From an uncultured bacterium (GTDB lineage Bacteria; Omnitrophota; Omnitrophia; Omnitrophales; Aquincolibacteriaceae): a DNA stretch of 64,000 nt. Both the position numbers and the translations under genes were made by a program. Below are positions 18,545-39,704 of this stretch, one piece after another (positions within the stretch are counted from its first letter, which is position 1; each line of letters opens with the position of its first letter). The stretch is taken from NCBI GenBank assembly GCA_964385615.1, contig CAYLPP010000003.1:203288-267287 (forward strand), written 5' to 3'. A model generated the notes under the pieces. It was not told where the DNA came from. It ran no database searches and worked only from the letters and a program-made list of their open reading frames with translations.

Positions 18545-18730
18545 CCGATGAGACTCCTGTAGCGTAGATTTTGATAAATTCTTTTTAAGAACATATATAA
18601 AGTAATTTATACTACGGGTATCTATAATACAAACGAGTTTTGGAAAATAGACGTCTTTGATGTGAAATGCTATGCAAAGCCATAGAATGTTATAAATTGA
18701 AGATACACCATAGGTGGGAAATTGCAAATC
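18545..18730 (-). promoter_or_regulatory. AT-rich intergenic region with candidate sigma70-like promoter and RBS for the first giant gene
   Basis: A 186-bp AT-rich gap. On the minus strand TTGTAT-N15-17-TATAAA and TTGCAA-N16-TATCTT are possible -35/-10 pairs. AGGAG precedes the ATG. No experimental support. Confidence 0.25.
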
Positions 18731-21700
18731 TTAGGCAGATCTTGAAGTAAGTGTCTGGGCCTGGCGGGTCATTAGAATTTCAAGAGCTTTGGCATTAATG
18801 TAGGCATGCCCCTGTTCATCGAAGGAAACCACGGCCTGGGCTGCATCCCCGTACTGCTTTCTCAGGGCCAAAGCCTGAAGAAACTCCGCGCGAAGCTTTT
18901 CCGCGTCACCGGGCTGGCGGACCAGAAGCGCGGACAGAATTCCAAACAGCGTCTGACTGAAACGCGCCATCACCGCGGCTTCAGCATTCACCCCGGAGTC
19001 ATGATCATAACGGATGCCCACCGGCCACAGCACCTGGTTGGAAGTCTGATAGATATTTCCTGAAGCGCGGATCAGCGGTAAAACTTTTTGATTAAGAAGA
19101 ACGGTTCCTGAAATTTTTTCCATCCGGTTCTGAGCCGTCAGAGAAATTCCGCTTTCCCGGATTTTTCCGGTCACTTCAGCACTAAGTGTTCCTTTAATTA
19201 AAAGACGTTCAACTTCGTTTGAAAAATAACGGGTTAAAATATCCGCGTAATCGCTTTCGGCTCTTTCAAATCCGTTTCTATCAATCTCAGACAAGTCCAG
19301 CGCGAGCACCACTTTCCGGTTTCCGGGAACCGCTTCTGAAATTTTCTTTCTAAAGAAGGAAAGCATCGCGTCAATCATAGGCGAAAAGACCGCGTGAACA
19401 GCTTCATTCACCGAAGCCTCGGGCCGGATATTCGCCAGAGTCTGCTCTACCGCCTGGCGCAAAGTCTTTTCCAAAAGATCCAGATCGATTTCTCTGCGGG
19501 CAACTTGCTGAACCGCCCGGCGCAGTTCAGCGCGGGGAGTAACGGCAGTAGAAGCGTCGGGATACAATTGCATCGCCAATGCGGTCAAATCCTCAGAAAT
19601 CAGAATGGGCTCAAGCCTTGTCTCAGAGCGGGCCTTTGAAGCTTCAACCGCGACGCGGTCGAACCAGTATGGATCATATCGCAAATTCCCAAACGCCAAC
19701 CGCTCCGCTTCCGGGAGTGAATAGAACCAGGCCTGTCCGCCGGGAAGAAATCCAATCTCATTGAGAACCACTTTTTTATCCGGGGTAATAAAAAAGTCCA
19801 CGGAAACAATCCCCGGCTTCTGCCTCCCCTGCGTTGAGACGACATCATAAATCGCCTGAGCCGCGCGCTCCATTTCGGCGGAAAGACGGCCCTGCTCACC
19901 CGCTTCAAGCCCCAGCTGATTAAATGTTTTCTCGACAGGCCAGACATCCCGGGAAGTGTACTCGGCAGTCCGGCGTAAGAAACCTTCCTGAAGACGAACC
20001 AGACGATTCACAGTCTCCACCCTGCCCGTTTTAGGGTTGAGAGAAAGAAGCAGGCGGACTCCCCAGGAAACTTCTTTATCTCTACCGTCCGGCTTCAAAG
20101 GCAGCAAAGGAATTTTTTCTTCAATCAAGTAGCGTAAAACCGCTTTTTCGGGAGGATAACTCTTCAAATGCTCCTCAACCTTCCGCTCTATTTCACCAAG
20201 ACTGTCTGACGAGCTGAAAAACTGCACCCCGATTCCCAAAGCCCCCTGATCAGGCTTCAGCACCACATCCGTTCCGTAAGAAGTCAGAGCTCTTTGAACA
20301 TTTTTCACGATCACATCTCTCCGCTCACTTTCTAAAGTGAAAATCTTCTTATCCAAATTCTGAACCAGGTGACGCGGAACCTCAATTTCCGGGTGCGGAT
20401 CTTGAAGGGCCAGATAGATGATCGATTTAAAAGTAAACCTCTTCAAATCTCTGGACTGCGGGGGGTAGGCAAGCGGAGTCCCGAATTGCCCCCGGATAAT
20501 CCCGCCCAGACTTTCTTCCAGGGAAATATTTCCTAAATTATACGCGTTCACGAGACGAGGTTTCGTGAACCGGTGAACCCAAAAGATTTTTCCTTCTTTT
20601 ACAAACCAGCCTCCTAATACCCAAATCCGATTACCCCGGACTTCTACCTCTTTCGTAAACGGTGCCGAAACAACCATGGCCAGCTCCGGATGCCCTTGAG
20701 AAAGCAGGAAAATCCCGGTTAAATCTTCCGGAATGAAAAATTCCAGCTCCGCGAAAGTCAGCTCTTGCTCCGGCCCATCCGCGGTTTCCAGGAACTGAAC
20801 TTCATGCCCCATGGATTTCAGCATTGCCGCGGACATCAGCTTCTCCGCCTTCATGAGAAAAAGACGTTTCCTCATTCTGTCAGGATTGGAATCAAGATTA
20901 TAATCTCCAAAAGAAGATACACTTTCTTCAACAGCCGTGTAGGAAGCCGGCAGCCCCAACGCTTTCTGAATGATGGGCTCCACAACTGCCAAAAGACGCT
21001 GAAGTTCTTCCGCGGGATCATTAGGGTCCGTGAATTGCGCGGTATTCACCTCTTTTTGCAGAGCCGCGTAAATTTCTCCCCAATCCGAAGCATTCGCCGG
21101 AGCTTCAAATGAGAACGAGCGGACTTCAGAACGCGCCGCCGTCTTTAGCGCTTCGGAAAAGGGCGTTAGTGAAATTAAGACAAGCGGCCCAAGCGGAGAC
21201 TTTCCCGCCGCGATTTCCGGACTGGAAGCTTCACTGAACTCCAAAAAATAAATCTCGGGATGCTTCTTAATTTCTCTTTCCAACTCACGGCTTTCCGCAA
21301 GCTTTTCTTCATCCGAAATTTTTTGACTGTTGTACAGCCTGACAAATCCTAGACTTTGATCATTTTGAGCGTAGCGTTTGAAAACTTTGAACATCGGCCC
21401 AAATCCCTGTGAAGCCCGTCCACTGGGATCCCAGGCATTAAAAAATATAAGATCGTACCGTTTTTCAAGTTCCGTCAGGCGGGTTTCATTTTCCTCAGCT
21501 TCAATCTTCGTAATTCCGTCAGCGTTAACAACGGCTTTTTGGACAGGATACCCCGCTCTTTTACCCGCGATTACAGCCGCTCCCTTAGCTTCAAAACCCT
21601 CTACCTCAGGCACCGCGTACCCTAAGCCCATCATCTGATTTTGAATGGCGGGTAGAAAATCCCCCAGACTTGTTCCGAAGTCCGCGATTTTAAAAACTTT

Positions 21701-24700
21701 CTGCTTCCGGCTTTCCGGCGTTAAATTAAACCTGGCGTCCAGCAGACTCTCCAGAGGCAGCCGCGGCTGATCTTCCCGCCCCTTTTTATGGCCAAAAGCA
21801 TCCTCCGGAAGAATCATTGACCGAGCTTCCGAACGAGAAGCAATACCGGGTTTTAAGCTAAGCTCGAGACTAAAAATCCTGTATTTTTCGTCATCCTGGT
21901 TCGGAGCATGAGACGAGCGGACGTCACCCGCGCCGGCCTGATAATCCGGAAACAGATAAATTAAACTCCGTCTTAAAAAATCGATGGCATTCATAATCTC
22001 CGTACTCTGCCGATACTCGCCGGTCCACTGAAGAATCACGCGATCCGGCTGAGCTTCCCGTTCATTAACCGCTTCACGGCGCGCCCGCCCGAATGAGGGA
22101 AGCGCGCTTACGGCGAGGGTTTCCGCGATTGGTTTTAAAGCAGCGGTCTTCTCAAGAAAGTCCCGCCAAAAAGCCTGCTGTTGATCCGCCTCTCCCTCAG
22201 CACTACCCGGCAGGAATGAAAAAACATCCGATTGAATCAAAACGCGAAGGGTTTCCTGAAGCACCGCTTCAGTCATAAGGCCACGGGGCACGGTCGGCAG
22301 TTTTCGAATTGCTTTATCAAACGCGAGAGTCTGAAGATTTTCTTTAGCATTTGCCCATTTTGGGGAAAGAGTTCCGGAAAGTTCCTGAGCGGCTTCTAAA
22401 TAATCCCCTTGTTCGAAAAGCCGGCGCGCGTCCCAAAGGTGAGGCCCCGAACTCGTCTGAAGCCCCGAAAAAGCCCGCCGAAGTTCCGCTAAAATCCGGT
22501 CCCTTTCCTCATCCTCTAAAGGTGCTTCTGTCACAGCAGTTGCCATGCGGACCTCAGAGCGTGAACTTTCGCCCCCCCGCAAAGCCCCGATCCCTTCACT
22601 CACCGCTTTTTCAAAAGCGGTCCATTCAGGAATAAGACCGGGATCCATAAAAGCTGGATCGATTCCGTTTAAAGCCCGGGCAACTTCGAGGGCTTTTTCC
22701 AAATAGTCCGCCGCAGCCCCAGGTGTTTTTATCTCGTCGGCCGTTAATCGAACCGCGGACTCGCCAAGCGCTCCGAAAAACGAAACGCTGTCTCCATCCC
22801 TCCCCGCGCTAAAAGCATCGAGCGCTGACCCGTAAGCAAAACCCAAGGCTGAAAAGGACTCGTTATCGGGAAAAAAGAAACCGTGATCTACCACAAATAT
22901 TTTCCCGGTGCCGTTCTCCAAAACAATATTCCCTGGGTTCTCAACCACATCAAAAAAATTCACCTTCTTACGGATCATCATTAAGCCGGTCTTGAAAATG
23001 CTTTCAAACGCAGATTTGACTCGCCCCGACTCTAAAAGCTCCTTAGCGCTTTCTCCGTCCACCGCCCGCACACTCATAATTCCAACGTTACTTCTGAAAG
23101 GCAGCCGGGCACGAACACCCGTTCGAGGACCAACTTCCAGACGTCCCATGAGCTCAGTTTCACGCACTTGTTCATTATTTAAAATTCCCGCGTAAATACC
23201 AAACGTATAACTCCGGCCTTGAAATTCAGCGCGCACTCGAAAAAAATCACGGTTACTTCCGGCTTTTGACTGCGGATCGAGAATCAGTTTTATCGGCTCG
23301 CCTGCACCGGCTTCTATTTTTTCTTCGGGATAGATTAACGCCAAAGAGCCTAGAATAAACTTCCGGCTGGATAGTGTTTTACGCAAAAGATCACTCAAAC
23401 CCGCAATAAGAGGACCTCTTTTCTCTAAATCCCGAAATGCCCGGCTCTTGAGCGGAACATCCGCCGGAATATCGGCATCAACACCTCCATCCGCTAAATC
23501 CTCCGCGCTCAGCTCCGGAACCTCTCGAAACTCAACTCGAATTTCGGATCTTCGCATGGCGGAAAGTTCATCTTCGAGAGACGCGGGAGAAAGAGCGGAA
23601 ACAGAATCCGCGTTAATTTCGATAAACTCCCCCGTGACTTTCGCTTTAAAAATACCAAGGGAATTAATCCTCTCAACGACGGTCTGGCGGTACTTGTCCA
23701 GCCTTCCGGGTTCGGCCAGCATCCATTCTCCGGCGCGGCGGTATTCGTCCGGCGAATAGCCTTGGTAATTGGGCACCATTTCACGGAGCACCATATCCGC
23801 GAAATTAATTCGATACCAGTCCGTATCGACTAAAGTCCCAAGCGAATCGTAACCCAGAGCGACAGCATCCCCGGCACGGCGCCGGGCTTTGCCGACAAGC
23901 AAGAAAAGTCTCCGGGAACTCAGCCTTTCCCCATTTTTCTGATAAAGCTGGAGAAGCATGTCTCCTAGTGAAAAACTTGTTCCGGTCAGAAGGAACCCTT
24001 TATCTTTCAGATAGGGGCTTATCTGTTCAGGAATCATCGCCTCCGGATGAGGGTAATATTTAAAAACATTGTAGGCGCTTATAAAATCGAAACTTCCCGG
24101 CTGGGCCCCGCCCAAACCGTCGCTAAGCTTTCCAGTCTTAAATTTTACTTTCTTCTTTCCGCTTTCCTCACCTTGAAACGGATTGGCAATAATCGAAATT
24201 CCTTTTGCCGATCCAGCCTCCGGATTGAGCCGGACTCGTTTAAATTCCTTGAGATAATCCCGCCCAAATAGCCGGGTCCACCAGTCCGGCTTCCATTCAT
24301 AGCTGTAAATAAGTTTCGGCTCAGAGCCGTCATTTTCCTGGCGGATGAAGGCTGTCCATCTTGCAGAATCACTATCGAGAACATAATTCGCGAAGTTAAT
24401 CTGATCAATCGCCGTGTAATCTAAAACGGCTTCAGAATGAAGGCTTGAGAGAACTCCTGATATCCATTCCGCCTGATCTCTTGTGACATACGCCGGATAG
24501 CCATTTCCAAAATCCGCAACCTGATAAGTCCTCTCGCCATCCTGAGCCAAAGCTTTCGTCAAAGACTCAATGACAGGACGGGCAGGATCCATGCGCCCTT
24601 TAAAACTTCCGACGGACGTGACGCGATCCACGGATCGAAGTTCGGAACGAGCCTGGTTTTTTACAGCCTCTTCCGCCGCGGCCTTTATCAGATTCTGCCA

Positions 24701-27700
24701 AGCCTGGTCCCGTGAGGTCAACGGCCCCTCAGACGGAGCCCATATCCATTCTCGTAACTGTTTCTCCAGCCGCTGCATCACCTTAAAGTCCCCGCTCTGA
24801 AGATACGGCAGAAAATAAAGCCGAAGCGCTTCTCCCGCTTCCATTTCCGAGACCTGAATAGTCATGTCATTAGGAACCAGATCACGGCGGTTCGCAAATG
24901 AAGAAATCCAGCCATTTTCACCAAAAACCTCTTCCTGAAAAACTTCTTCCGCTGTTCTATCTTTGAAGCGGAAAGGAATTTTCACCGCACCGGGACTCTT
25001 CCGTTTAGGTCTTTCTCTGGTTTCTAAATGTGCGAGATACGCTTCACGGATTGATACCCAAACCCGCTGAGCATCGCCGGGAGTCACGTCTTTTAAATCC
25101 CGCTTCTCTCCGCGATAGAGGGACTCCAAATTCCGTTTTAACTGCTCAAGCGGAAAATTTCTCTGCTTCACCAGATACCACTCTAAAGCTTCTTCAACAA
25201 AAGCAGGTTCTTCAAGCTGACCCATTTTTCCCTGGACACCGGCCCGCAAGAATAAATCTGTCCATTCCACCCCAGCAGCTTCACGCGCCGCAAGATCTGC
25301 CTCTACTTTAACTGCCCGGATTTTGCGCTCCTCCATTTCAACCCGCCGCGCTTCCTGAGCGGCCTTCTCGCGCTGAATCAAGTCCTGATACCCTGCTGCC
25401 CCGGCACCATATCGTGGGATAAAAATTCCCGAGAACAAGTCCTGAATTGAATTTTTTTGCCCGATCCACGCCTGAATCTGAGCCAGAGGAATCTCCGGAA
25501 CCGTACCTTGCTCCGCTTTCTGATTTTCAACACTGAAAGATTCGGTCACAAGCGTGTGCAGTGAGAAATTCTGGCCATAGCCGGGAAGCTTTCTTTCAGG
25601 CCAGGGTTCACGCGTGAAAACATTTGCCTGACGTTTTCCCGTTCCGCTTTGAATTCCGCCAGCGGCGACAATCACCCCGCGCACCGGAACACCGGCCCGC
25701 CGAAGCAGTTCCAAATCGCGGACCTGCCCGGGAATCTGCGAATTGATTGTTTCCCGAATGAGCGGGTTTAAATCCGCGGCATCGTCTTCTTTAGCCTCAA
25801 CAAAATAAAGACCCTCCCCAAAATCCATTCCTTCAGGCGGCGTCACTCCCGGCCGGGGTTTAAGTGAAAGCATAATGTCGTACTCATGAAAACCAATCAG
25901 CAGATTAACGCCCAGAACCTCAACTTCATAGTAGGGTGCCAAAATTTTCTCCAGGCGGTACGCGGTCATGAGTTCACCCGCGGCCTCATCAAACCCCTTA
26001 TCACCCCCTAACTTATAAGCACTCATAAGGCGAATCACGAATTCACGCATCCCGGGAAGATTCGTATAGCGATCGGAGATCAAATATTTCAATTCTCCGA
26101 ATTTTTCCTGATTTTCCAGGATCCAAAGCTGTTCCAGCCGGCGTAACCGGGCCAGCTTGCTATGCTCAGCAAGAACATCCAGCGCCCAATCCACAGGCTC
26201 CTTTTCAGCCGGCTGCTCTGTATCGGTACGCAATTCAGAGCGCGAGATTCCGCGAAGGTTAGTTAGAAGCTCCCCGAATAATTCGGCGCTGATATTCTCG
26301 TTTGCCTCCCGAGGGGTACCCCCAAAAATCTGAACATGATTCTCTCCCACCACGCTAAAAATCTTGGTCCTGGCCGGATATAAAGCCAAACGGCGGCTGA
26401 GCACTTCACCCGCAATTTGATTGCGGACTTCAAGCCGCGCATTCCTAACACGATTCAGCCGTTCAAGAAATACGGGAATGGACGAAGGAGAGGTTCTTAG
26501 CTGTCTCAATTTTTTAACTACAAGATTGCGCTTCTGATCTTCACTCAACGGACTTCTATGAAGCGCTCTCAGTGATAAGGAAAACCATTCCGGCGCGGGC
26601 AGCTGCGTGAGCTGTAAATCGGGAACACCGCTGATTAAATGGATGAAAAGGAGGGATTCCCACACATCATCCGCGGAAAGCCCCAGAGTATCCTGAAGTC
26701 TTTGAATCACTTCGGGAGCTTCCAGTCTGGGAATAGGATCAAAAACGGGAATCCTCAAACCCCGGGCAACTTCCTTCATCGTTGTAACTTCAGCCGGAAG
26801 CGCGGCCTGGGCTCCTAAACCCGGGAGGACCAACTCCTCCGGCTCTTCGGCGCCTTCCAGCACAATGACCCAAGAACGGGGATTTCCGATCGATTTTTGC
26901 GCGATATCCAGAGCATATTCCGGTAATTGAGGATCTCCGTGCATTCCCCCGATCAAATCTACTTCATAGATTTTTCCGCTCAAAGACTCTTTCCACCGGC
27001 CTTTAAAGTGCGCGGGAGGAAGCGAGTAAATATCCAGATAATTTTGGGTGAAACTATTTTGAGCCGCCGCGTCTTTGTATTTCTTACGCACGGCCCCAAA
27101 AACTTTCCGGTTAACGAAAAGATCGTAAAAAAACCTGGGAATCACCAACAGAAGCCATTTGATCCAGGACTCCGGCTTTTCAACCTGATTTTCGGACGAA
27201 TTTTGCGTCCTGGATTCGGAGCGAGCGGACGGGACAACATTTCTTAATTGAATTTCCCTGCTCAGATCAAAACCGAGATAACCGTTTTCCTCAAGAAGTC
27301 CGAGAAAAACATACGGATCGGCTGCCGTACCAAGAATCGCCCGGATATTTGCTTCTGCCTGTTCTCGAATTGAAGCAATCGTGTTTCGAGGATGAACATT
27401 CGCGGGTGAACCTGAAGTCACTTCCGCGGCACGCCCTGTCTGGTAAATCACTTGCCCAATGGCGCCAATCATCCATTCAGGAACTTTCTGTCCGTCAAAA
27501 AGATTCCCAATCTGTTCTTTAACATGACTTTTAATCAGCTTCTCGCGCTCATAGGCAGCCTGCAGTTCGGGAGCCTGCGAAGGCTGGTACCCCTGAGACT
27601 TGAGAGCAAGACTGCTTTTCCCCTTATCCACTTCAGCAGACAGTGCATCCAGGATATTTCCGGGTTTAGCGATCAGGTCTCCAATTTTGTCAAAAGACGC

Positions 27701-30700
27701 CGCCTCCAGATTCGGTTGATCCAAGGGACCTTTTGAAACTTCGGCGGCCGCAAGCGTCAAGTCGGCCCGAACCCACCGCCCCGTCTGCAGCCGGGAAAGA
27801 GAAGAAGGCATCCCTTCATATTTCTGCGTTTCAGGAACCCAGAGATCTCCAAGGCTGATAATAAATTCTTTTTGCTCGCTCCCCGCTTCAATCCTAGCTT
27901 CAATTTCCGGATATTTTTCCGGGAACGCGTCGCGCAGAAGTTTCTGCCGTTTCTCCTGCGGAAGAGCTTTAATTTTTTCAAAATTAAGCGGGATTTTGAC
28001 TCTCTGATACATGACCCATCTCAGATACCCATGAAGAACCGGCGCGTATTCAGGCTTTCTTAAATCTTTGGAGGTCAAGCTCTCATCGCCGCGGGTTTCC
28101 GCGAGATAGGCTTTAAAGGCCGGGGGCGCGCGCCCCTGGTGCGTGGAAATCCATTCCAGCTCCTTTTGAATCGTGTCTGTCACAATTCCGAACAGAACAC
28201 TGTCCTCAGCCGGATAAAAATCGAAGCGCGCCGAAAGAAAATCATTCACTTGCTTAAAATTATCAATATCAATCATGAAGAGAAGAAGCTTTTTGTCATT
28301 GTCCATTACGCCGAAAATCTCGTCACCGATCGAAGCTTGAGAGTATCCCGAAACATGTTTATCCTCAGTGAGTCTTCTTTTATTGATCATCCGATATACG
28401 TCATAGATTAGAAAGGCCTTATTGGCCTGACGGTGATCCCGGCTGTCACGGGTGATTAGAATTTCTGTCTTCCTGAAAATTTCCCGGATTTTCGGCATGG
28501 CTTTTTTGAGCTCTTCACGTCCGCTCCGGTCTTTCCCTATTCGAATGGCTTCAAGAAGACGGGTTAAAAGATCGGTGGTCTGACGCTCAAACCGTGAAAC
28601 TGAATTGATCTTGACGGTATCATCCGGGTACCCCCAATCCAGTCCGGGCCAAGGGTGATGAACTTGCAGAGGAAAAGATCCTCTCTGACTTCCTTCCGAT
28701 AATCCGCGCCCCTCCGTGAGGACTTCCTGCCTTTTCCGGCTCTCTTCCATCATATCGCCCAGGATTTCATAAATAGTCACGGCAAGGCGGTAAGATTTTA
28801 ACCGCTTATACATATTGGCAAAAAGGAGATCATCATCAGCCGTCTGCTCACTGTCAACCGACGGCGGGATCAGTAATTCAGACAAAGATTTAGTAACCCC
28901 GGTAACAAAAACCGGATCTCCGCTGTCAATGCTTCTCCAGATGCGCCTGGCCATGACCGCGGGAAAATCTTCCATCTGAGCCTCAGCTTCAAGGGTATCG
29001 TAATCAGGATTGTTGGCATTTAAAACAGTCTCAAGCGTTCCCAGAGAAATCATCGCCGCGGGCGTTTTTAAATGCCCCTGCATCTCTTTGCGCACCGCGG
29101 CGACACGAACGGCCGTTTCTCCGCCGTCAACCGCGTTATCCTGCATCCGCTGAAGCGCGAGATCGAACTCCCGCCTGGCTTCCGCGTTAACTTCACTAAT
29201 AAACTGAGCCGCCAAGTGTTGAGGAATCCCGATAATCACCGGGCGTTTTCCTTTAACAACCCAGGCGGTTACCCCGTCCATTCTCTTTACAACCGTGTCG
29301 ATCGCGCGTTCCATCGCGTGCCACATTTCATTGCCGGCGCGCATACTGGGGTCTGCTTTATTAATCGCGCTCATCGGGGCCATGTACCCCAGAGTGATAA
29401 TAGTCTCCGCTCGAACTTCTTCGGAACGGATATTCCGGTTGCGCTGGTCGCGCATCAGCCATTGCGCTATAAATTCAGGCCCTAAATGCGTTGTGTCGAA
29501 ATCTTTTTGGAGGTACCCGTATAAACGGATCAAATCCTGCATCTGCTCCAGAACAGACGGAACCAGCCGGTCCCAGCGGCCGTCACTAGAAATTGCCGCC
29601 GCCTCTAAAACCTGCAGAATCTTTTCCACTTTTCCCAGCTGACCGGCAACGCGCAAATTTCTGCGCACAATGGGATTCGCGGTTCCGCCTCTACGCCGGT
29701 CCTCAATCCATTCGTCCCCCACCTTAACTTTGCTTTTTTCCGCCCGTAATTCACTGCGCGGAGCAACGGCACCGGCAAAGTAAGGAACCGGTATTCCAGA
29801 AGTCTTCAGCAGACTCATGACATTATTTTCATCAAGTTTTCCCAACTTATCGAGAGACCGCACACTGCGAATGAACGCGTCAATATTGGCAAGCCATTTT
29901 TCGCGCACAGAATCCAGGAAATCCCCGTTAATTTCATCTAAAAGCTGAAGATAAGAATCAGCCTTCTCCACGCGGTTCTGCGCGGAAAGATCGCGGATAA
30001 TCTGATCCCTCCACGCCTTTAAAAGTTTTCCGGGCTGATCGGTCTGCTTCAGAAGACGGTCGCGAGTTGAACGAGCAAAAGCCCGGGAGAGATTGATTTT
30101 CCCATTCTCAACCTGAAGATATTTCTTCCAGGACACATCCCCTTGCATTTGAGCCCGGTAAAGCGAAATCTCCGGGATCGACTGCATTTCCGGACGAATC
30201 AGCACGTAGGAAATCCCCGCTTCCCGTAAGATTCGGGCCAGACCCTGCGCATGAAACCCTCCAAGCACCAAAGCTCCCCGGTTCAGATTTCCGGCCTTAA
30301 TCCCATTTATAAAGTTTCCGGCAATCGCCCTCTCCCTGGCCTCCGCGTTTTTGTAAAATTCTTCAGCGGAAATAAAATAAGAGGAGGCAGGGTCTTCGGC
30401 TATTCCGTCTGATTGAATTTTTTCCCAATCTTTCCGTGAAAGCTCCAGAGAAGCCAGTTTTCGCAAGTGTTGAAAATGACGGATATCCTGAAGAAGTTTT
30501 TTCTGTTCTCCGGTTTCAGCCAGCCGATCCTGAATTTCTTCAGAATACGCTTCAAATTCCTGAAAGAACCGGGTTCCTTCTAGACCCTGAAGACGCTGAT
30601 GAGCTAAGATCCGGGCCTTGAGGCCCTCTGAATAAGCAAGCGAAGGAAGAAAAGTCTGCAGTTCTGAAGCGAAAGCGTCTTCCCGGATCTCTCCCGTCCG

Positions 30701-31588
30701 GTAGGCCTGACTCAAAGCCTGAAATTTTTTTCCGGCACCGGCGTTCTCCTGGCGGTTTTGGGGAGAATCCAAAAAAGAAAACACCCTCTGTGAAGCTTTA
30801 GAAATCTCCTCTTTGAATTCTTCTTCATTCCCGATAGAGTTTTCATTCAAAATCAGTTCCAGCGAGGAACCCTTTGGCGGTTTTTGAATACTCGCCAGAA
30901 GCTGAAGCACATTCAGCATGTCCTCCTGATTTTTCCGAAAGGCCTCAAGACTGCGTTCTAATTCCAGAAGACGCGGCGTAAAGAGCCTGTTCTTTCGATC
31001 ATTGATAATTTTTTCCATTTCCGCAATTTTGACGGAACTCTGCCGGCTGTCCGCGGCCGCCCGAAAAAGGGAGAAACCCTGCTCGTAAAGCCCCCAATCT
31101 TCAACACCTTCAAATTCCGCCAAGCCCGGTCCGGTGATTGCCGATTCGGCAGTTCCCGTCAATTCGCCTTTTTCCGCGTATCCATTGAGAACCGTCTTCA
31201 AAATTCCGGCATCCGGAAAACTTCTAAAAAGCTGCGGGTCAAAAGGCCCGAGAGCGCCCTCAACCCCGATGTAGCGGACTCCATGATCGGTCTGAAGTAA
31301 ATTCAGTAAAGCCTGAATGTTTTTCTGGGCGTCAGGAACAGCATGAGCGTCCTGAATCAGGAAAACGGCGGGAAGATCTTTTTGGCCTTCTGAGACTTCC
31401 TCAATTTTTCCAAGACCCGATGGGATTTCAAATTTGGATAAATCAGCTAAAAGAAGAACCTGGGGATCGGGTTTGGATTCAGAACCCGCCAGCGCGGATG
31501 GAAATGGAACGGGACCTGTCATGGCAAAACAGACCACGACCGCCCCCGCAACCCACCGATTTAAAGAGGTTTTCAGAGTGATTTTCAC
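18731..31588 (-). CDS. giant multidomain protein, 4,285 aa, N-terminal signal peptide, highly charged and helical, with TraB/Tiki-like, kinase-like, GGDEF-like and ATP-grasp-like motifs
   Basis: An uninterrupted 12.86-kb ORF with GTG start and N-terminus MKITLKTSLNRWVAGAVVVCFAMTGPVPFPSALAGS. Motifs by region: GGFHAQGLARIL (GxxHxxG, TraB/Tiki-like); IDIDNFKQVND; NPGNIVLENGTGKIFVVDHGFFF; and VVLKPDQGALGIGV...VVLNEIGFLPGG near the C-terminus. Confidence 0.75.
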   Translation of the reverse strand: MKITLKTSLNRWVAGAVVVCFAMTGPVPFPSALAGSESKPDPQVLLLADLSKFEIPSGLGKIEEVSEGQKDLPAVFLIQDAHAVPDAQKNIQALLNLLQTDHGVRYIGVEGALGPFDPQLFRSFPDAGILKTVLNGYAEKGELTGTAESAITGPGLAEFEGVEDWGLYEQGFSLFRAAADSRQSSVKIAEMEKIINDRKNRLFTPRLLELERSLEAFRKNQEDMLNVLQLLASIQKPPKGSSLELILNENSIGNEEEFKEEISKASQRVFSFLDSPQNRQENAGAGKKFQALSQAYRTGEIREDAFASELQTFLPSLAYSEGLKARILAHQRLQGLEGTRFFQEFEAYSEEIQDRLAETGEQKKLLQDIRHFQHLRKLASLELSRKDWEKIQSDGIAEDPASSYFISAEEFYKNAEARERAIAGNFINGIKAGNLNRGALVLGGFHAQGLARILREAGISYVLIRPEMQSIPEISLYRAQMQGDVSWKKYLQVENGKINLSRAFARSTRDRLLKQTDQPGKLLKAWRDQIIRDLSAQNRVEKADSYLQLLDEINGDFLDSVREKWLANIDAFIRSVRSLDKLGKLDENNVMSLLKTSGIPVPYFAGAVAPRSELRAEKSKVKVGDEWIEDRRRGGTANPIVRRNLRVAGQLGKVEKILQVLEAAAISSDGRWDRLVPSVLEQMQDLIRLYGYLQKDFDTTHLGPEFIAQWLMRDQRNRNIRSEEVRAETIITLGYMAPMSAINKADPSMRAGNEMWHAMERAIDTVVKRMDGVTAWVVKGKRPVIIGIPQHLAAQFISEVNAEARREFDLALQRMQDNAVDGGETAVRVAAVRKEMQGHLKTPAAMISLGTLETVLNANNPDYDTLEAEAQMEDFPAVMARRIWRSIDSGDPVFVTGVTKSLSELLIPPSVDSEQTADDDLLFANMYKRLKSYRLAVTIYEILGDMMEESRKRQEVLTEGRGLSEGSQRGSFPLQVHHPWPGLDWGYPDDTVKINSVSRFERQTTDLLTRLLEAIRIGKDRSGREELKKAMPKIREIFRKTEILITRDSRDHRQANKAFLIYDVYRMINKRRLTEDKHVSGYSQASIGDEIFGVMDNDKKLLLFMIDIDNFKQVNDFLSARFDFYPAEDSVLFGIVTDTIQKELEWISTHQGRAPPAFKAYLAETRGDESLTSKDLRKPEYAPVLHGYLRWVMYQRVKIPLNFEKIKALPQEKRQKLLRDAFPEKYPEIEARIEAGSEQKEFIISLGDLWVPETQKYEGMPSSLSRLQTGRWVRADLTLAAAEVSKGPLDQPNLEAASFDKIGDLIAKPGNILDALSAEVDKGKSSLALKSQGYQPSQAPELQAAYEREKLIKSHVKEQIGNLFDGQKVPEWMIGAIGQVIYQTGRAAEVTSGSPANVHPRNTIASIREQAEANIRAILGTAADPYVFLGLLEENGYLGFDLSREIQLRNVVPSARSESRTQNSSENQVEKPESWIKWLLLVIPRFFYDLFVNRKVFGAVRKKYKDAAAQNSFTQNYLDIYSLPPAHFKGRWKESLSGKIYEVDLIGGMHGDPQLPEYALDIAQKSIGNPRSWVIVLEGAEEPEELVLPGLGAQAALPAEVTTMKEVARGLRIPVFDPIPRLEAPEVIQRLQDTLGLSADDVWESLLFIHLISGVPDLQLTQLPAPEWFSLSLRALHRSPLSEDQKRNLVVKKLRQLRTSPSSIPVFLERLNRVRNARLEVRNQIAGEVLSRRLALYPARTKIFSVVGENHVQIFGGTPREANENISAELFGELLTNLRGISRSELRTDTEQPAEKEPVDWALDVLAEHSKLARLRRLEQLWILENQEKFGELKYLISDRYTNLPGMREFVIRLMSAYKLGGDKGFDEAAGELMTAYRLEKILAPYYEVEVLGVNLLIGFHEYDIMLSLKPRPGVTPPEGMDFGEGLYFVEAKEDDAADLNPLIRETINSQIPGQVRDLELLRRAGVPVRGVIVAAGGIQSGTGKRQANVFTREPWPERKLPGYGQNFSLHTLVTESFSVENQKAEQGTVPEIPLAQIQAWIGQKNSIQDLFSGIFIPRYGAGAAGYQDLIQREKAAQEARRVEMEERKIRAVKVEADLAAREAAGVEWTDLFLRAGVQGKMGQLEEPAFVEEALEWYLVKQRNFPLEQLKRNLESLYRGEKRDLKDVTPGDAQRVWVSIREAYLAHLETRERPKRKSPGAVKIPFRFKDRTAEEVFQEEVFGENGWISSFANRRDLVPNDMTIQVSEMEAGEALRLYFLPYLQSGDFKVMQRLEKQLREWIWAPSEGPLTSRDQAWQNLIKAAAEEAVKNQARSELRSVDRVTSVGSFKGRMDPARPVIESLTKALAQDGERTYQVADFGNGYPAYVTRDQAEWISGVLSSLHSEAVLDYTAIDQINFANYVLDSDSARWTAFIRQENDGSEPKLIYSYEWKPDWWTRLFGRDYLKEFKRVRLNPEAGSAKGISIIANPFQGEESGKKKVKFKTGKLSDGLGGAQPGSFDFISAYNVFKYYPHPEAMIPEQISPYLKDKGFLLTGTSFSLGDMLLQLYQKNGERLSSRRLFLLVGKARRRAGDAVALGYDSLGTLVDTDWYRINFADMVLREMVPNYQGYSPDEYRRAGEWMLAEPGRLDKYRQTVVERINSLGIFKAKVTGEFIEINADSVSALSPASLEDELSAMRRSEIRVEFREVPELSAEDLADGGVDADIPADVPLKSRAFRDLEKRGPLIAGLSDLLRKTLSSRKFILGSLALIYPEEKIEAGAGEPIKLILDPQSKAGSNRDFFRVRAEFQGRSYTFGIYAGILNNEQVRETELMGRLEVGPRTGVRARLPFRSNVGIMSVRAVDGESAKELLESGRVKSAFESIFKTGLMMIRKKVNFFDVVENPGNIVLENGTGKIFVVDHGFFFPDNESFSALGFAYGSALDAFSAGRDGDSVSFFGALGESAVRLTADEIKTPGAAADYLEKALEVARALNGIDPAFMDPGLIPEWTAFEKAVSEGIGALRGGESSRSEVRMATAVTEAPLEDEERDRILAELRRAFSGLQTSSGPHLWDARRLFEQGDYLEAAQELSGTLSPKWANAKENLQTLAFDKAIRKLPTVPRGLMTEAVLQETLRVLIQSDVFSFLPGSAEGEADQQQAFWRDFLEKTAALKPIAETLAVSALPSFGRARREAVNEREAQPDRVILQWTGEYRQSTEIMNAIDFLRRSLIYLFPDYQAGAGDVRSSHAPNQDDEKYRIFSLELSLKPGIASRSEARSMILPEDAFGHKKGREDQPRLPLESLLDARFNLTPESRKQKVFKIADFGTSLGDFLPAIQNQMMGLGYAVPEVEGFEAKGAAVIAGKRAGYPVQKAVVNADGITKIEAEENETRLTELEKRYDLIFFNAWDPSGRASQGFGPMFKVFKRYAQNDQSLGFVRLYNSQKISDEEKLAESRELEREIKKHPEIYFLEFSEASSPEIAAGKSPLGPLVLISLTPFSEALKTAARSEVRSFSFEAPANASDWGEIYAALQKEVNTAQFTDPNDPAEELQRLLAVVEPIIQKALGLPASYTAVEESVSSFGDYNLDSNPDRMRKRLFLMKAEKLMSAAMLKSMGHEVQFLETADGPEQELTFAELEFFIPEDLTGIFLLSQGHPELAMVVSAPFTKEVEVRGNRIWVLGGWFVKEGKIFWVHRFTKPRLVNAYNLGNISLEESLGGIIRGQFGTPLAYPPQSRDLKRFTFKSIIYLALQDPHPEIEVPRHLVQNLDKKIFTLESERRDVIVKNVQRALTSYGTDVVLKPDQGALGIGVQFFSSSDSLGEIERKVEEHLKSYPPEKAVLRYLIEEKIPLLPLKPDGRDKEVSWGVRLLLSLNPKTGRVETVNRLVRLQEGFLRRTAEYTSRDVWPVEKTFNQLGLEAGEQGRLSAEMERAAQAIYDVVSTQGRQKPGIVSVDFFITPDKKVVLNEIGFLPGGQAWFYSLPEAERLAFGNLRYDPYWFDRVAVEASKARSETRLEPILISEDLTALAMQLYPDASTAVTPRAELRRAVQQVARREIDLDLLEKTLRQAVEQTLANIRPEASVNEAVHAVFSPMIDAMLSFFRKKISEAVPGNRKVVLALDLSEIDRNGFERAESDYADILTRYFSNEVERLLIKGTLSAEVTGKIRESGISLTAQNRMEKISGTVLLNQKVLPLIRASGNIYQTSNQVLWPVGIRYDHDSGVNAEAAVMARFSQTLFGILSALLVRQPGDAEKLRAEFLQALALRKQYGDAAQAVVSFDEQGHAYINAKALEILMTRQAQTLTSRSA

Positions 31589-31712: not shown

Positions 31713-33122
31713 TTAAGTTCTTTTTTTCTCTAGCTTAAGCTTGTCAAAATCATCGGTAACCGCGGTAGGATATTCGCCGGAAAAACAGGCAGAACAGAAA
31801 GATTCCGCAGGCTGGGTCGTAGCCGCAAGCATCCCTTCCAGACTCAGGTAACCGATACTGTCGACTTCCAGGAATTTTTTAATTTCTTCCATCGAATTAT
31901 TGCTGGCAAGAAGCTCCGCCTTTGACGGAAAATCAATGCCGTAATAACAGGGTGAAACATGCGGAGGACAGCTGATCCGCATATGAACTTCCCGCGCACC
32001 GGCCTTGCGCAATAAAATCACGCGCGACTTGGCCGTATTCCCGCGGACGATCGAATCATCCACCACGATAACGCGCTTGCCTTCCACAACCTCTTTAATG
32101 GGATTCAATTTAATTTTAACTTTGAGAGAACGCGCGGCCTGGGTCGGACTGATAAAGGTACGGCCGATGTAGTGGTTGCGCGTGAAACCGATGCCTAACG
32201 GAATTCCTGATTCCTTGGCGTATCCCATGGCCGCGAAATTTCCGGAATCCGGCACAGGAATAACAATGTCCGCCTTCACGGGATGTTCCTTGGCCAGCTG
32301 GCGCCCTAAGCGCTCACGAACCAGCCCGACGTTATCGCCGAAAATAGTGGAATCCGGACGGGCAAAATAAACGTGCTCAAAAATGCACTGCGCCTTTTTA
32401 TATTCTTTGTCTTTGAACGGGAAAAAACTGCGCGCGCCATTTTCATCAATCACAACCACTTCCCCCGGCGCGACTTCCCGGACAAAATCCGCTTCGGTCA
32501 AATCAAAAGCGCAGGTTTCAGACGCCACGACGTAGGAGCGCCCTAATTTGCCCAGGCACAGCGGACGGAAACCATGAGGATCACGCACCGCGAACATTTT
32601 TTTCTCCGTCAGTATCACAACGCTGAAAGCGCCTTCCACGCGCCGAACCGTATCAATCACCGATTCTTCGACATTTCGGTAAGACGGCTTGGCCATCAGG
32701 TGCACAAAAATTTCAGAATCCATGGTGCTTCCAAAGATGGAGCCGTAAGCTTCAAGTTCCGCGCGCAGAATTTGAGCGTTAACCAGATTTCCGTTATGCG
32801 CGACGGCAACCTGCCCCCGGGAGTAGTCCACTTTATAGGGCTGAGCGTTAATCACCGTGGAAGAACCCGTTGTCGAATAGCGGACATGACCAATCGCGTG
32901 ATTACCAGGAAGCGCCGCGATCGCAGCCTCATCAAAAACATCGCCCACATGGCCCTGATTTTTATAGAGATGCAGTTTCTCACCGTCGGAAGTGCAGATA
33001 CCCGCGGCCTCTTCACCCCGGTGCTGAAGCGCAAACAAGCCCAGATAAGTCAGACGGGCGGCTTCCGGGTGATTGAAGATACCAAAAACACCGCAATGAT
33101 CTTTAACGTTTTCCCCGCTCAC
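31713..33122 (-). CDS. purF: amidophosphoribosyltransferase
   Basis: 469 aa starting [16 protein letters not shown] with the Ntn catalytic Cys, a PRTase domain, and C-terminal Cys residues (Fe-S-type PurF). Confidence 0.9.
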
Positions 33123-35365
33123 GCTTCCATCCTTTTGGGAATCGCTCCCTCATAGATTTTCTTCATCTCATCAATCGTCAGAGAAATTTTATCATCCACG
33201 CAAAGCTCTTTACCGCCAGTTTTCCCAATCTGCGCGATCTGAACCCCGTTGCGGTGCGCCGCCTGAATCACGGCTTCTTTATCTTTAGGATTCACGCTTA
33301 TGAGAACCCGTGACTGACTTTCACCGAAATAAATAGAATCTTTACGGAGAGCCCCGAAATCCCGGATTAGATCAACGTGATCAATCAGCGCGCCGATCTG
33401 ACCTCCCATGCAGGATTCCGCGAGGGCCACAGCCAGTCCGCCTTCAGACAAATCATGGCAGGACGCCAACAGCCCCATGCCCGCCTGCTCCAGAATAGTT
33501 TTTTGAAGAGCCGTCTCACGGTTTAAATCCAGACGCGGAGGCAACCCTTTTTCAAGACCATGTTCAATCATCAGGTAATGGCTTCCTCCGATTTCATCGA
33601 AGGTCTGCCCCATCAGAAATACCAGATCCCCTTCACGCTTGAAAAAGGAAGGAACCCGCTTTGAAATATTTTCAATCAAACCGACCGCGCCGACCGTAGG
33701 CGTCGGATAAATCGCTGCGGTCGGGCTCTCATTGTAAAAACTGACGTTACCGCCGGTCACCGGAGTCTGAAGCGCTTTGCAGGCTTCCGTCATGCCCAGA
33801 ACCGCCTGGTGAAACTGCCAGAAAACTTCGGGCTTCATCGGATTTCCAAAATTCAAACAGTTAGTAATCCCCAAAGGAACCGCGCCGGTGCAGACCACGT
33901 TGCGAACCGATTCGGCAACAGCGATTTTACCGCCTTCAAAAGGATCCAGGTAACAGTACAAACTATTGCAGTCTGTCGAAACCGCGATCCCCTTTTCGGT
34001 TCCCTTAATGCGGACCAAGCCGGCATCATGCCCCGGATAAAAAACCGTATCGGTGCGGACCATATGGTCGTACTGCTGCCAGACCCAGGCTTTAGAAGCG
34101 ATCGTCGGGTGGTTTAAAAGTTTTTTCAGAACCGCGTTAAAATCTTTAGGTTCCGAGACCGTTTTAAGATCGAGCGTTTGCGCTTCTTTTAAGTACGCAG
34201 GCAATTTCTCTTCACGGATATAAATCGGGCCGTCATCCGCAAGCGCCTTGGCCGGAATTTCAGCGACCAATTTTCCGTTCTGAAGCACACGCATCAGCTT
34301 GCCGTCCTTCACTTCGCCGATCTGAACCGCGTGCAAATCCCATTTCTTAAAAATATCTTCAACGATTTTTTCTTTGCCCTTTTTAGCGATAATCAGCATG
34401 CGCTCCTGCGACTCCGAGAGCATAATTTCATACGGAATCATCCCGGTTTCACGCAAAGGAACTTTGGCCAGATCAATTTCAATTCCGGTAGAACCGCGCG
34501 CCGCGGTCTCACAGGTCGAACAGGTCAAACCAGCCGCGCCCATGTCCTGCATACCCACCAGAGCGTCGGTTTTAATCAATTCAAGACAGGCTTCGAGCAA
34601 AAGTTTTTCCATGAACGGATCGCCGACCTGCACCGCGGGCCGGTCCGTCTGACTTTCTTCCGTCAATTCGCGCGACGCGAATGCCGCTCCGCCCAAACCG
34701 TCACGGCCGGTAGCGGAACCCACGTAATAAACCGGGTTGCCGGTTCCCGCAGCCTTGCCTTTCACAATGCCTTTGGTGTCCACAAGACCAAGACACATGG
34801 CATTCACCAAAGGATTCCCTTCGTAGGAAGGATGAAAATAAACTTCTCCGCCGATCGTGGGAACGCCCATACAGTTGCCGTAATGCGAAATCCCCGCGAC
34901 AACCCCTTTAAAAAGACGCTTGGTTGTGACTGAGTCACCGGAATCCAGAGAACCAAACCGCAGAGAATTCATGGAAAGAATCGGCCGGGCTCCCATCGTG
35001 AAAATATCGCGCATAATCCCGCCGACACCGGTCGCCGCGCCCTGAAAAGGTTCAATCGCCGATGGATGATTGTGGCTTTCAATCTTGAAGCAGATCGCAA
35101 GCCCTTCGCCGATATCGATAATCCCCGCGTTTTCCTCCCCCGCTTTCACCAGCAGTTTAGCGCCGGACGTGGGGAAAAGTTTCAGAATGGGTTTGGAATT
35201 TTTGTAAGAGCAATGCTCACTCCACATGACACTGAACATCCCGAGTTCGGTGATGTTCGGCTCACGGCCGAGAATGGTTTTGATTTTCTGATACTCTTCA
35301 GGCGTGATCCCGTGCTTGGCGATCAGTTCAGGCGTGATTTTAGGTTCGGTCATAGTCATTGTCAT
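33119..35365 (-). CDS. purL: phosphoribosylformylglycinamidine synthase subunit PurL (FGAM synthase II)
   Basis: 748 aa with [22 protein letters not shown] and duplicated AIRS domains. Confidence 0.9.
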
Positions 35366-35367
35366 TT

Positions 35368-36051
35368 TTAAACACTCAAAAGGCTTTCCCAGATTTTTTT
35401 ACCGTCACAGCCCGCGAGAATATCTTCGCTGGCGCGTTCAGGGTGAGGCATCATGCCCATGACATTCCCTTTTTCATTAAGAATCCCGGCGATATGGTCC
35501 CGGGAACCGTTCGGGTTGAATTCTTCACCCAGCTTTCCGTCCGCGGAGCAATAGCGGAACAGAATCTGATTTTGATCCTGAAGACGCTTAAGCGTATCGT
35601 CATCGCAGAAATAATTGCCTTCGCCGTGCGCGATCGGGATATTCAGGACTTCGCCCTTTTTGATATTTTTCGTAAAGATGGAATTATTGTTCTCACAGCG
35701 GATAGGCGTGAACTTCGAGATAAAGGAAAGCGTTTTATTGCGAAGCATAGCGCCGGGAAGAAGCCCGGCTTCCAGAAGAATCTGAAAACCATTGCAGATA
35801 CCCACCACGTAACGGCCTTCCGCGGCATGACGGCGGACCGATTCCATCGCGGGTGAAAAACGGGCAACCGCGCCCGTGCGCAGGTAATCCCCGTAACTGA
35901 AACCGCCGGGAAGAACCACAAGATCAACTTTTGGGAGGGTATTTTCTTTATGCCAGACAAATTCGACCGGAATTTTCATAACGTCTTTGAGGACGTGAAA
36001 ACAGTCCGTATCACAGTTGGAACCGGGAAAAACGACAACCGCGGCCTTCAT
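35368..36051 (-). CDS. purQ: phosphoribosylformylglycinamidine synthase glutaminase subunit PurQ
   Basis: [16 protein letters not shown]... with a class I glutamine amidotransferase triad (C, H..E). The ATG at 36051 is preceded by AAAGGAGAG; the ORF-track start at 36093 is rejected as too long. Confidence 0.88.
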
Positions 36052-36105
36052 TTCAAAACTCTCCTTTGTCTGACGGGGGCATTCTACCGTCACGCGCCCT
36101 TTGTG

Positions 36106-36615
36106 TCAAAGCACCCGTGAAGTGATGCTTTTTTCCGATTTAGCCCAATTCACTTCGACTTCCAGACTTCCCTGCCCATCCGGCCTGAAAACAACATCCA
36201 TCCAGCTGAAGGTCATGCAGGCTTTTCCCTCAAGAACCGCCTTGCGGGCCTCCAGACTCATAGCCTCAAGATTCATCAGCGCGGGTTCAAAAGTGTAGAT
36301 AACCGGCTTCCCTTCGGCCATCCGGTATTTGTAATCTTTTCCGCCGTTTTTTTCAATCAGCGCCAGAGCGTCATCTTCCCCGTGGATTTTTAAATCTTTT
36401 TGAGCTTCCTGAAGCGCTTTGCGGGAAACCTGATCGAAATACGCTTTCTCAGCTTCTTCGTTTTTAAAGAGCCGGTCTTCTTTCAGAAGCTTTGAAATTT
36501 CCCGCTTAAAATCCGGAGCTGACTCCTCTTTCGAAGCGCAAAGTGAAACCGGCGGAAAAACCACGCAAAGCAGAAGAAGAGCCGCGGAAAACCGGCGGAA
36601 TGAAGAAGGAAACAT
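36106..36615 (-). CDS. hypothetical secreted protein inserted between purS and purQ
   Basis: 169 aa with a signal peptide (MFPSSFRRFSAALLLLCVVFPPVSLCAS) and a charged coiled region. No recognisable family. Confidence 0.5.
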   Translation of the reverse strand: MFPSSFRRFSAALLLLCVVFPPVSLCASKEESAPDFKREISKLLKEDRLFKNEEAEKAYFDQVSRKALQEAQKDLKIHGEDDALALIEKNGGKDYKYRMAEGKPVIYTFEPALMNLEAMSLEARKAVLEGKACMTFSWMDVVFRPDGQGSLEVEVNWAKSEKSITSRVL

Positions 36616-36629
36616 TCGCCCCGTTCCGC

Positions 36630-36881
36630 TCAGGCTTCCTGAAGCTGGAAGGTGTAATCCTCAATGACCGGATTGGTCAAAAGTTTTTCGCACATTTCGC
36701 GGATCCGGGCTTCGGCTTTCTGACGATTTTCAGCGTCAAGCGCCAGCTCGAAAAACTTTCCGACTCTCAGATTTTTCGCTTCTTTAAAACCCAGCGAATC
36801 CAAAGCGTGCAGAACCGTCTGCCCCTGCGGATCCAAAACCGACTTCTTCAATGTTACGTTAATGGTCGCCTTAAACATCAC
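36630..36881 (-). CDS. purS: phosphoribosylformylglycinamidine synthase subunit PurS
   Basis: 83 aa, MMFKATINVTLKKSVLDPQG..., the typical PurS fold. Confidence 0.85.
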   Translation of the reverse strand: MMFKATINVTLKKSVLDPQGQTVLHALDSLGFKEAKNLRVGKFFELALDAENRQKAEARIREMCEKLLTNPVIEDYTFQLQEA

Positions 36882-37792: not shown

Positions 37793-37807
37793 TCGGTTTC
37801 CTCTTGG

Positions 37808-39569: not shown

Positions 39570-39704
39570 GTCAACCTTCGGGCACTTGCGCCCATGCGCA
39601 AGTATCTCGCGGTGACGTCTAAGGAATACGTCAACCTCTCGGACACTTGCGCCCATGCGCAAGTATCTCGCGGTGACGTCTAAGGAATACGTCAACCGCG
39701 AGGA
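39570..39704. repeat. 61-bp tandem direct repeat (2.2 copies) with an internal palindrome, directly 3' of xerD
   Basis: Copy 1 is 39570-39629 and copy 2 is 39630-39690; they are near-identical (2 substitutions plus 1 indel). A partial third copy overlaps the xerD stop codon. Each unit contains the inverted repeat ACTTGCGC-CCAT-GCGCAAGT and a GTGACGTC motif. Confidence 0.8.

Follow-up and report, generated by a model that had tools for sequence, protein, structure and literature searches.

A recurrent RSExR motif marks the module junctions of a giant, putatively exported protein with a TIKI-like head from an Omnitrophota-type bacterium

Our analysis of a 64,000-nucleotide stretch of DNA from an uncultured bacterium (contig CAYLPP010000003.1; the whole stretch is referred to as the window) concerns a giant gene on its minus strand at positions 18731-31588. 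We favor a model, to which we assign a probability of about 45 %, in which the gene product is a multi-enzyme cargo, built of modules and exported by an Omnitrophota-type bacterium, and the pentapeptide RSExR serves as a recognition or cutting site between those modules. The initial annotation of this DNA, which had been made from its sequence alone, did not include the motif at the junctions, the exchange of modules between orthologues, the conserved position of the gene after purF or the link to the Omnitrophota. What the gene adds to the already described class of giant multi-enzyme proteins is a compact set of orthologues that have in common a TIKI-fold head, one tail, one locus and an explicit motif at their junctions.

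The gene is, as the initial annotation had it, a single giant open reading frame (ORF). Nine copies of RSExR (at residues 611, 1456, 1783, 2314, 2680, 3010, 3252, 3486 and 3987) and an RAELR variant at residue 4019 split its product into ten modules of 230-845 residues, and every module boundary is marked by [R]-S-E-x-R. Chance would give 0.15 copies, and the most found in any of 2000 sequence shuffles was two. The neighboring 4677-residue protein and all real ORFs of the other window genes lack the motif. A scan of species-representative genomes returned one relative, H1, on a 21-kb contig (L001) of a metagenome-assembled genome (MAG), and an exhaustive HMMER search with residues 2315-3486 yielded the full-length proteins P0001 (4490 residues), P0002 (4107) and P0003 (7370), together with other large proteins that share single modules with the window protein; word-index homologue searches with residues 3253-4285 and 617-1456 found nothing. 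H1 holds ten RSExR copies against 0.10 expected, and P0001, P0002, P0003, P0005 and P0007 hold 7, 10, 22, 8 and 5, respectively, each against about 0.1; P0005 and P0007 are in other respects different proteins. A full-text literature search for the motif strings gave nothing relevant. The features of the gene, from the N-terminus of its product onward, are as follows.

18731..31588 (-), whole ORF: 4285 residues, GTG start, TAA stop, uninterrupted
31487..31588 (-), residues 1-34: Sec-type signal peptide or signal anchor, with basic n-region, hydrophobic residues 16-34 and ALA/GS as the inferred cleavage point
29759..31486 (-), module E (head), residues 35-610: predicted TIKI/ChaN/EreA/TraB-superfamily alpha/beta core with a ~270-residue helical insert; candidate catalytic residues D80, H82, E110 and H446
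29744..29758 (-), junction 1, RSELR, residues 611-615; same junction in H1, P0002 and P0003
27224..29743 (-), module H, residues 616-1455: common to H1 only (53 % identity); degenerate GGDEF-like half-domain at residues ~1062-1161, DIDNFKQVND kept, signature lost
27209..27223 (-), junction 2, RSESR, residues 1456-1460
26243..27208 (-), module S3, residues 1461-1782: no homologue detected; TIKI His/Glu/His pattern mimicked by H1550, E1578 and H1751; holds the amphipathic stretch at residues 1473-1492
26228..26242 (-), junction 3, RSELR, residues 1783-1787
24650..26227 (-), module I, residues 1788-2313: homologous to a P0007 module; HEYDIML...FVEAKE resembles, by eye, a PD-(D/E)xK nuclease motif
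24635..24649 (-), junction 4, RSELR, residues 2314-2318
23552..24634 (-), module A, residues 2319-2679: in all five orthologues at differing positions; VADFGNGYP, weak Methyltransf_12 match
23537..23551 (-), junction 5, RSEIR, residues 2680-2684
22562..23536 (-), module B, residues 2685-3009: protein-kinase-like; D2880, N2887 and D2901 invariant
22547..22561 (-), junction 6, RSEVR, residues 3010-3014
21836..22546 (-), module F, residues 3015-3251: common to P0001-P0003
21821..21835 (-), junction 7, RSEAR, residues 3252-3256
21134..21820 (-), module G, residues 3257-3485: common to P0001-P0003; methyltransferase-like, by eye, at KIADFGTSLGDF and FFNAWDP
21119..21133 (-), junction 8, RSEVR, residues 3486-3490
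19631..21118 (-), module J, residues 3491-3986: probable ATP-grasp ligase-like C-terminal half (VVLKPDQGALGIGV; VDFF...LNEIGFLPGG); directly after module H in H1
19616..19630 (-), junction 9, RSETR, residues 3987-3991
19520..19534 (-), junction 10, variant RAELR (RSELR in H1), residues 4019-4023, after a 27-residue spacer
18734..19519 (-), module C (tail), residues 4024-4285: C-terminus of all five orthologues, 40-59 % identity

Five independent assemblies carry the family as uninterrupted ORFs of 3.8-7.4 thousand residues with a common head and tail, the relatives ranging from at least 3814 to 7370 residues. To map their modules, the proteins were cut at the motif and the pieces clustered, which gave these orders.

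Window protein: E-H-x-I-A-B-F-G-J-C
H1: E-H-J-K-A-x-D-D-x-C
P0001: E-x-B-x-x-L-G-A-F-x-C
P0002: E-x-D-D-x-A-x-L-G-F-C
P0003: E-M-K-x-G-x-M-x-F-A-(six singletons)-D-x-x-D-C

All five proteins keep head E and tail C, and the internal modules are swapped, moved, duplicated or replaced. Homology blocks in BLAST and HMMER alignments start and stop at the motif: residues 3482-4004 of the window protein correspond to residues 1132-1645 of H1, which indicates that the ATP-grasp-like module has shifted from a place immediately behind module H to one immediately ahead of the tail, and the alignment of module A runs from the motif Ser to the next motif in three relatives. A further contig, L010 (1-9990; long-read, 2.8x coverage), holds six overlapping same-strand ORFs without Pfam matches that contain RSEAR, RSEGR, RSESR and RSEVR together with a module A homologue, and probably represents one more such giant gene, disrupted by frameshift errors. 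P0004 is not counted as a free-standing copy of module A, because it comes from a 2.8x long-read contig on which a run of overlapping ORFs bears the motif.

The motif belongs to no one fold, since it bounds WD40 propellers, PP2C, kinase-like and Rossmann domains alike; WD40, PP2C, Methyltransf_28 and epimerase modules reach significance in Pfam in the relatives. Several family members carry doubled motifs beside the head and the tail, the two copies lying 20-43 residues apart. All four TCN codons and AGY are used for the motif Ser, the position-4 residue and the second Arg are each written with many codons, and no nucleotide conservation was found outside the 15 nucleotides of the motif. Five fixed amino-acid positions with varying codons argue that selection acts on the peptide. 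In P0005 and P0007 a signal-peptide-like stretch stands directly after the motif, Tat-like in the former (residues 83-110, RSEMR followed by RRDFLKEGLAAIAAAS) and Sec-like in the latter (residues 146-180, RSEMR followed by MPKWGLAAVSVGAAMMVALTLPVAAES); these could reflect over-extended gene calls or export signals exposed by cleavage.

The model of the head predicts with confidence a globular alpha/beta hydrolase fold, in which a central parallel beta-sheet with flanking helices resembles known members of the TIKI/TraB/PrgY/GumN/ChaN/erythromycin-esterase superfamily (PMC6254334). A counterpart of the 2His/2Glu active-site pattern of that superfamily (E-x-H, a Glu some 28 residues on and the His of a C-terminal GxxH) is present as D80-x-H82, E110 and H446 in GGFH. 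H82 and E110 are spaced by 28, exactly as are the corresponding residues of Bcr135 (H85/E113) and RRSP (H3902/E3930) (PMC6254334). A word-index search with a short alignment of conserved head blocks gave 31 head-module homologues; D80, H82 and E110 are invariant in 33 of 33 aligned heads and H446 is kept in 8 of 10. Unlike known superfamily members, module E has its two halves parted by the helical insert, its first acidic residue is Asp, not Glu, and it escapes Pfam, NCBIfam and PDB sequence profiles: PF01963 (TraB_PrgY_gumN) and related families gave no match at E-values up to 1 with the whole protein or up to 10 with five head modules searched singly, there was no NCBIfam match, and the PDB sequence-profile search was empty. 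Foldseek found nothing significant in the PDB for the model. The TraB/GumN/Tiki-type assignment made in the initial annotation holds for the fold and the His/Glu pattern and finds no support in Pfam. We regard module E as a hydrolase-fold head whose catalytic His/Glu pattern is intact and which may act as a peptidase or an esterase.

The initial annotation had placed four motif islands in the protein, and all of its strings lie within a few bases of where it put them: IQDAH at 31343-31357 and GGFHA at 30248-30262 in the head; MIDIDNFKQVND at 28241-28276 in module H; FDVVENPGN at 22928-22954 and FVVDHG at 22880-22897 in module B; and VVLKPDQGALGIGV at 20225-20266 and VLNEIGFLPGG at 19736-19768 in module J. 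Its protein-kinase-like reading of module B is supported, whereas its label of a pseudokinase with the Asp replaced is not: the catalytic-loop Asp and Asn and the Mg-binding Asp equivalent to that of DFG are present at the usual spacing and invariant in an alignment of seven homologous modules. A profile of these seven sequences matched YopO (E-value 0.036), a PknB-type kinase (0.052) and RIO2 (0.086) in the PDB; in Pfam one homologue matched ABC1 at 6.6e-6, and the window module matched PI3_PI4_kinase at 0.046, under the cut-off. As to a Gly-rich loop and the ATP-anchoring Lys of strand beta3, the alignment shows conserved G-I-x-A-G and GPRxG motifs and no invariant Lys.

Module H was correctly described as the start of a GGDEF domain without GGDEF. 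Compared pairwise with a genuine GGDEF protein (L002, Pfam E-value 1.3e-37, taken from the metagenome scan and otherwise unrelated), it shows 31 % identity over 104 residues (E-value 3e-9 for this two-sequence comparison) and retains the N-terminal half of the palm (DxDxFKxxND); in place of the GG(D/E)EF signature, HQGRAPP faces GGEEF, a replacement kept in H1. TIGR00254 of NCBIfam matched at an E-value of 0.07, and the PDB profile search with module H had no match. The ATP-grasp reading of module J is weakly supported. In the region examined (residues ~3760-3960) the best sub-threshold matches are all to ATP-grasp ligases: Pfam Dala_Dala_lig_C has an E-value of 0.046 and 13.7 bits, where the cut-off is 24; NCBIfam Ddl models have E-values of 0.007-0.2; and the PDB profile search gave BacD (0.01) and Ddl (0.13) along two co-linear stretches. 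No curated cut-off was passed, and hhalign against the PurD of the window gave no signal. Of the motifs expected in this family, a Lys-Pro with a Gly-rich loop and the Mg-binding D ... E-x-N triad, alignment to Ddl by eye places the Asp and the Glu, with the Asn of ExN replaced by Gly in both the window protein and H1, where VVLKPDQGALGIGV and VDFF...LNEIG are kept.

The remaining modules are less readily placed. Module A is possibly a Rossmann-type methyltransferase, judging from its sequence; this reading, that of module G and the PD-(D/E)xK reading of module I rest on motifs seen by eye and on one weak Pfam match, because PDB profile searches with these three modules returned nothing of relevance. 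In module S3, LIGGMH (H1550), IVLEGAE (E1578) and VVGENH (H1751) fall within residues 1545-1752 (nucleotides 26333-26956), with a His-Glu spacing of 28 as in the head and in known TIKI enzymes; this suggests a second, compact TIKI-like domain, for which hhalign of S3 against module E gave no signal. The tail had no PDB match, and a single-sequence AlphaFold2 model of residues 3487-4285 was uninformative (mean predicted local distance difference test score, 37.5).

A basic stretch, the hydrophobic residues 16-34 and ALA/GS give the window protein the N-terminus expected of a Sec-type signal, as the initial annotation had proposed from the same sequence, and P0001-P0003 share this layout. The same annotation was right about a make-up rich in Leu, Ala, Glu and Arg (10.7, 9.2, 8.9 and 7.5 %); its possible transmembrane anchor at ESWIKWLLLVIPRFFYDLFV (residues 1473-1492), a stretch that holds Lys, Arg and Asp, finds no support. 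Its Kyte-Doolittle mean stays under the 1.4 over 19 residues that we required of a transmembrane segment, a value reached only at residues 16-34 and 4205-4223. Cysteine occurs once in 4285 residues, in the signal peptide, so the mature protein has none; P0001-P0003 have 1-3 each and H1 has none, while 18 neighboring ORFs average 1.16 %. Self-BLAST of the window protein found no internal repeats; Pfam, NCBIfam and PDB sequence searches with the whole protein gave only sub-threshold matches, and PADLOC and PHROGs searches gave no match.

The gene stands directly after purF in the window and on the four contigs L003, L004, L005 and L006 that encode P0001-P0003, within the conserved order ligA-xerC-purB-purC-purS-purQ-purL-purF, giant gene or genes, purM-purD-purE-sua5. 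This shared order indicates one orthologous lineage locus, not a mobile island. All of the head homologues that carry an organism name, 5 of the 31, are MAG proteins of Candidatus Omnitrophota/Omnitrophica. The same MAGs have genes with an E head elsewhere too, and these continue past the ends of their contigs, which suggests that such heads are widespread in the phylum as the start of long genes.

How might such a protein work? We picture a chain composed of head E, eight unrelated internal modules and tail C that would be exported by Sec, with RSExR recognized by one factor acting in trans or in cis. A recognition site for one factor is the most likely role of RSExR because the motif is tied to no single fold, is selected at the protein level and is sometimes doubled. 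This factor would most plausibly be an endopeptidase that cuts the chain, like a polyprotein, into separate enzymes. Members of the TIKI superfamily include site-specific endopeptidases, which makes the head the obvious candidate, with a protease activity that is so far only predicted. Many translocated proteins lack cysteine; since several modules would need adenosine triphosphate (ATP) or S-adenosylmethionine and the mature chain is Cys-free, a host or prey cell, whether its interior or its surface, would be a likelier place of action for the cargo than the open medium. The effector or toxin role proposed in the initial annotation is putative. A more specific version makes RSExR a processing site dedicated to a bacterial polyprotein system: after Sec export the TIKI head or a lineage-specific protease would cut the chain into about ten enzymes, which are reassorted as cassettes in evolution and which an Omnitrophota epibiont would deliver to its host or prey. 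This version appears to us unlikely, with perhaps a quarter of the weight of belief behind it.

Several points weigh against the recognition-site model. Cleavage at RSExR and export are both predictions from sequence, and the assignment to the Omnitrophota is drawn from homologues. P0007 carries the motif without the head module, so a head protease acting in cis is not a general rule, and RSExR fits no protease specificity known to us. The linkers that hold the motif are short and of near-average composition, slightly enriched in acidic and polar residues, with no obvious disordered spacer. Most modules have no significant family match, and for five of the ten the label of enzyme is putative. 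Finally, across 58 sites (from the window gene, L001, L003, L004 and L005) the first motif Arg is CGY (CGC or CGT) in 56 and never CGG, although CGG makes up 26 % of Arg codons in the same genes; where an Arg codon precedes a TC codon, CGY accounts for 59 %. Codon usage at the second motif Arg is ordinary. This bias hints at a nucleotide-level or translational constraint that a protease does not account for.

The same codon bias is an argument for an explanation in which RSExR is chiefly the footprint of in-frame DNA shuffling, a short recombination core or micro-homology of the form CGY-TCN-GAR..., retained as the place where cassettes are swapped, with a secondary role in the protein. The modules do change places precisely at the motif, and a tyrosine recombinase gene (39692-40573) lies in the conserved neighborhood. 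We nevertheless consider this explanation improbable: the recombinase looks like an ordinary XerC/D beside ligA, the codon variety at the Ser, at position 4 and at the second Arg and the lack of conservation beyond the 15 nucleotides are poor fits to a DNA site, and fixed residues with varying codons speak for the peptide. We take more seriously, while still holding it unlikely, an uncleaved multi-enzyme scaffold at the cell surface or in the periplasm, for which RSExR would be a hinge or a docking peptide for the fn3-rich giant neighbor, a chaperone or a translocation factor. Short linkers of near-average composition suit such a scaffold, as does the presence of another giant gene for a secreted protein beside it in the window, on L001 and on L005/L006, and the Omnitrophota literature presents very long multi-enzyme proteins as membrane-anchored, with cleavage not shown there. 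A hinge, however, would not require R, S, E and R to be invariant, the doubled motifs at head and tail junctions are hard to fit as hinges, and P0003 has its 22 motifs without a neighboring giant partner.

The codons and the fold results contradict two further explanations. That the giant ORF is not one protein, being translated separately from internal starts at the motif or produced by assembly or annotation error, gains something from position 4, which is Leu, Met or Val in 52 of 71 sites, from the signal-like stretches after RSEMR in P0005 and P0007, and from the overlapping ORFs of L010. In the window gene, though, the position-4 codons are TTA, TCC, CTT, ATT, GTC, GCT, GTC and ACA besides a single canonical start (TTG, one of nine), and no Shine-Dalgarno-like sequence lies upstream; from the codons we reject the idea that RSExR encodes internal ribosome-binding sites with start codons. 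Five independent assemblies agree on uninterrupted ORFs with the same head and tail, and frameshift errors are expected in 2.8x long-read sequence such as L010. We regard this explanation as very improbable. Scarcely credible, in our view, is a structural adhesin or coiled-coil fiber with enzyme-like motifs by chance, which the high Leu, Ala, Glu and Arg content and the long helices predicted in the head insert might evoke: the head is confidently modeled as globular, the kinase-like module keeps its catalytic residues, internal repeats are lacking in the self-BLAST, and relatives carry enzyme domains significant in Pfam. The initial annotation had already judged the protein not to be a structural fiber, and we agree with it in seeing an exported chain of enzyme-like modules.

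The closest known systems are the multi-enzyme giants of the Omnitrophota (Archaeovorin-type). The authors who described them propose that they are cleaved and state that it is not known where (West-Roberts et al. 2023, 10.1101/2023.11.21.568195); the more recent description of a "multi-enzyme metabolic cluster" (Nielsen & Lui 2026, 10.64898/2026.06.07.730766) does not contain the words cleavage, motif or linker. The window protein probably comes from the same phylum as these giants, as judged from named homologues, and shares with them a signal or hydrophobic segment followed by unrelated enzyme domains (methyltransferases, kinases, GGDEF and others), much sequence invisible to Pfam and a suspicion of post-translational cleavage. 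The published surveys used a threshold of at least 10,000 residues (10.1101/2023.11.21.568195; 10.64898/2026.06.07.730766), and the window protein, many-domained like the giants, has 4.3 thousand residues against their at least 10-30 thousand. It differs further in that its orthologues make up a defined family whose TIKI-like head and whose tail are fixed, in having, with P0001-P0003, a fixed place within the purine operon, and in its explicit junction motif, which neither paper mentions. The statement in the initial annotation that no described family fits accordingly holds at the level of the family, whereas the general class had been described.

Other systems offer more distant parallels. 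MARTX toxins of Vibrio and its relatives are likewise large and secreted, with constant ends, an internal effector array that varies in kind and order, and modules freed by inter-domain proteolysis. In the window protein, in contrast, Pfam and NCBIfam match neither RTX or glycine-rich repeats nor a cysteine protease domain; the protein is Cys-free when mature, has a Sec-type signal in place of a C-terminal type I signal and a fixed pentapeptide in place of Leu-containing linkers, and shows no sequence homology to MARTX. Viral and retroelement polyproteins similarly combine unrelated enzymes in one product, with short consensus sites for a dedicated protease and short spacers between doubled sites, whereas the window gene is cellular, chromosomal and set in a housekeeping operon, and its processing is hypothetical. 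Polymorphic toxins such as Rhs and CdiA join a conserved delivery part to variable enzymatic parts swapped at a short motif (VENN in CdiA, PxxxxDPxGL in Rhs); they carry one C-terminal toxin where the window protein has many variable modules in series, and the window gene has no adjoining immunity gene and its product no YD or FHA repeats.

Hidden cleavage points hamper structure prediction and functional dissection of the giant multi-enzyme proteins of the Omnitrophota. RSExR offers a simple rule, open to testing, by which such proteins could be divided into units, the TIKI-fold head is a candidate protease to consider, and a family of 4-7 thousand residues is a tractable model for how bacterial multi-enzyme cargo is built and diversified. 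Were the polyprotein reading true, the motif would be the first sequence rule that divides Omnitrophota giants into functional units; were RSExR merely a linker, it would still be a practical marker of domain boundaries in Pfam-dark sequence.

The surroundings of the gene merit some comment. In the window the purine operon (767-4624 and 31713-39106, minus strand; purB, purC, possibly purS, purQ, purL and purF, then purM, purD and purE, followed by sua5) is split by two giant genes. Where the related contig L005 has an 82-residue purS, the window has a 169-residue ORF without a Pfam match (36106-36615, minus strand), which is probably purS with an over-extended start. The adjoining giant ORF (4694-18727, minus strand; listed at 4677 residues) is rich in Gly, Pro, Thr and Asn, has fn3-like matches and no RSExR, and probably starts in truth at Met62, where MIKGSQKTLSWILLVPFFFFSVTSG is signal-like. 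An ORF related to it follows the orthologue on L001 (44 % identity over 289 residues); a second giant ORF also follows on L005 and L006 and none on L004. Elsewhere in the window a stand-alone MEKHLA-domain protein is encoded at 47224-47775 (minus strand; Pfam E-value 3e-50), and the ORF at 59805-60917 (minus strand) unusually joins a ParA/MinD-type ATPase (AAA_31, CbiA) and a glycogen-binding AMPK1_CBM/CBM48 domain in one protein.

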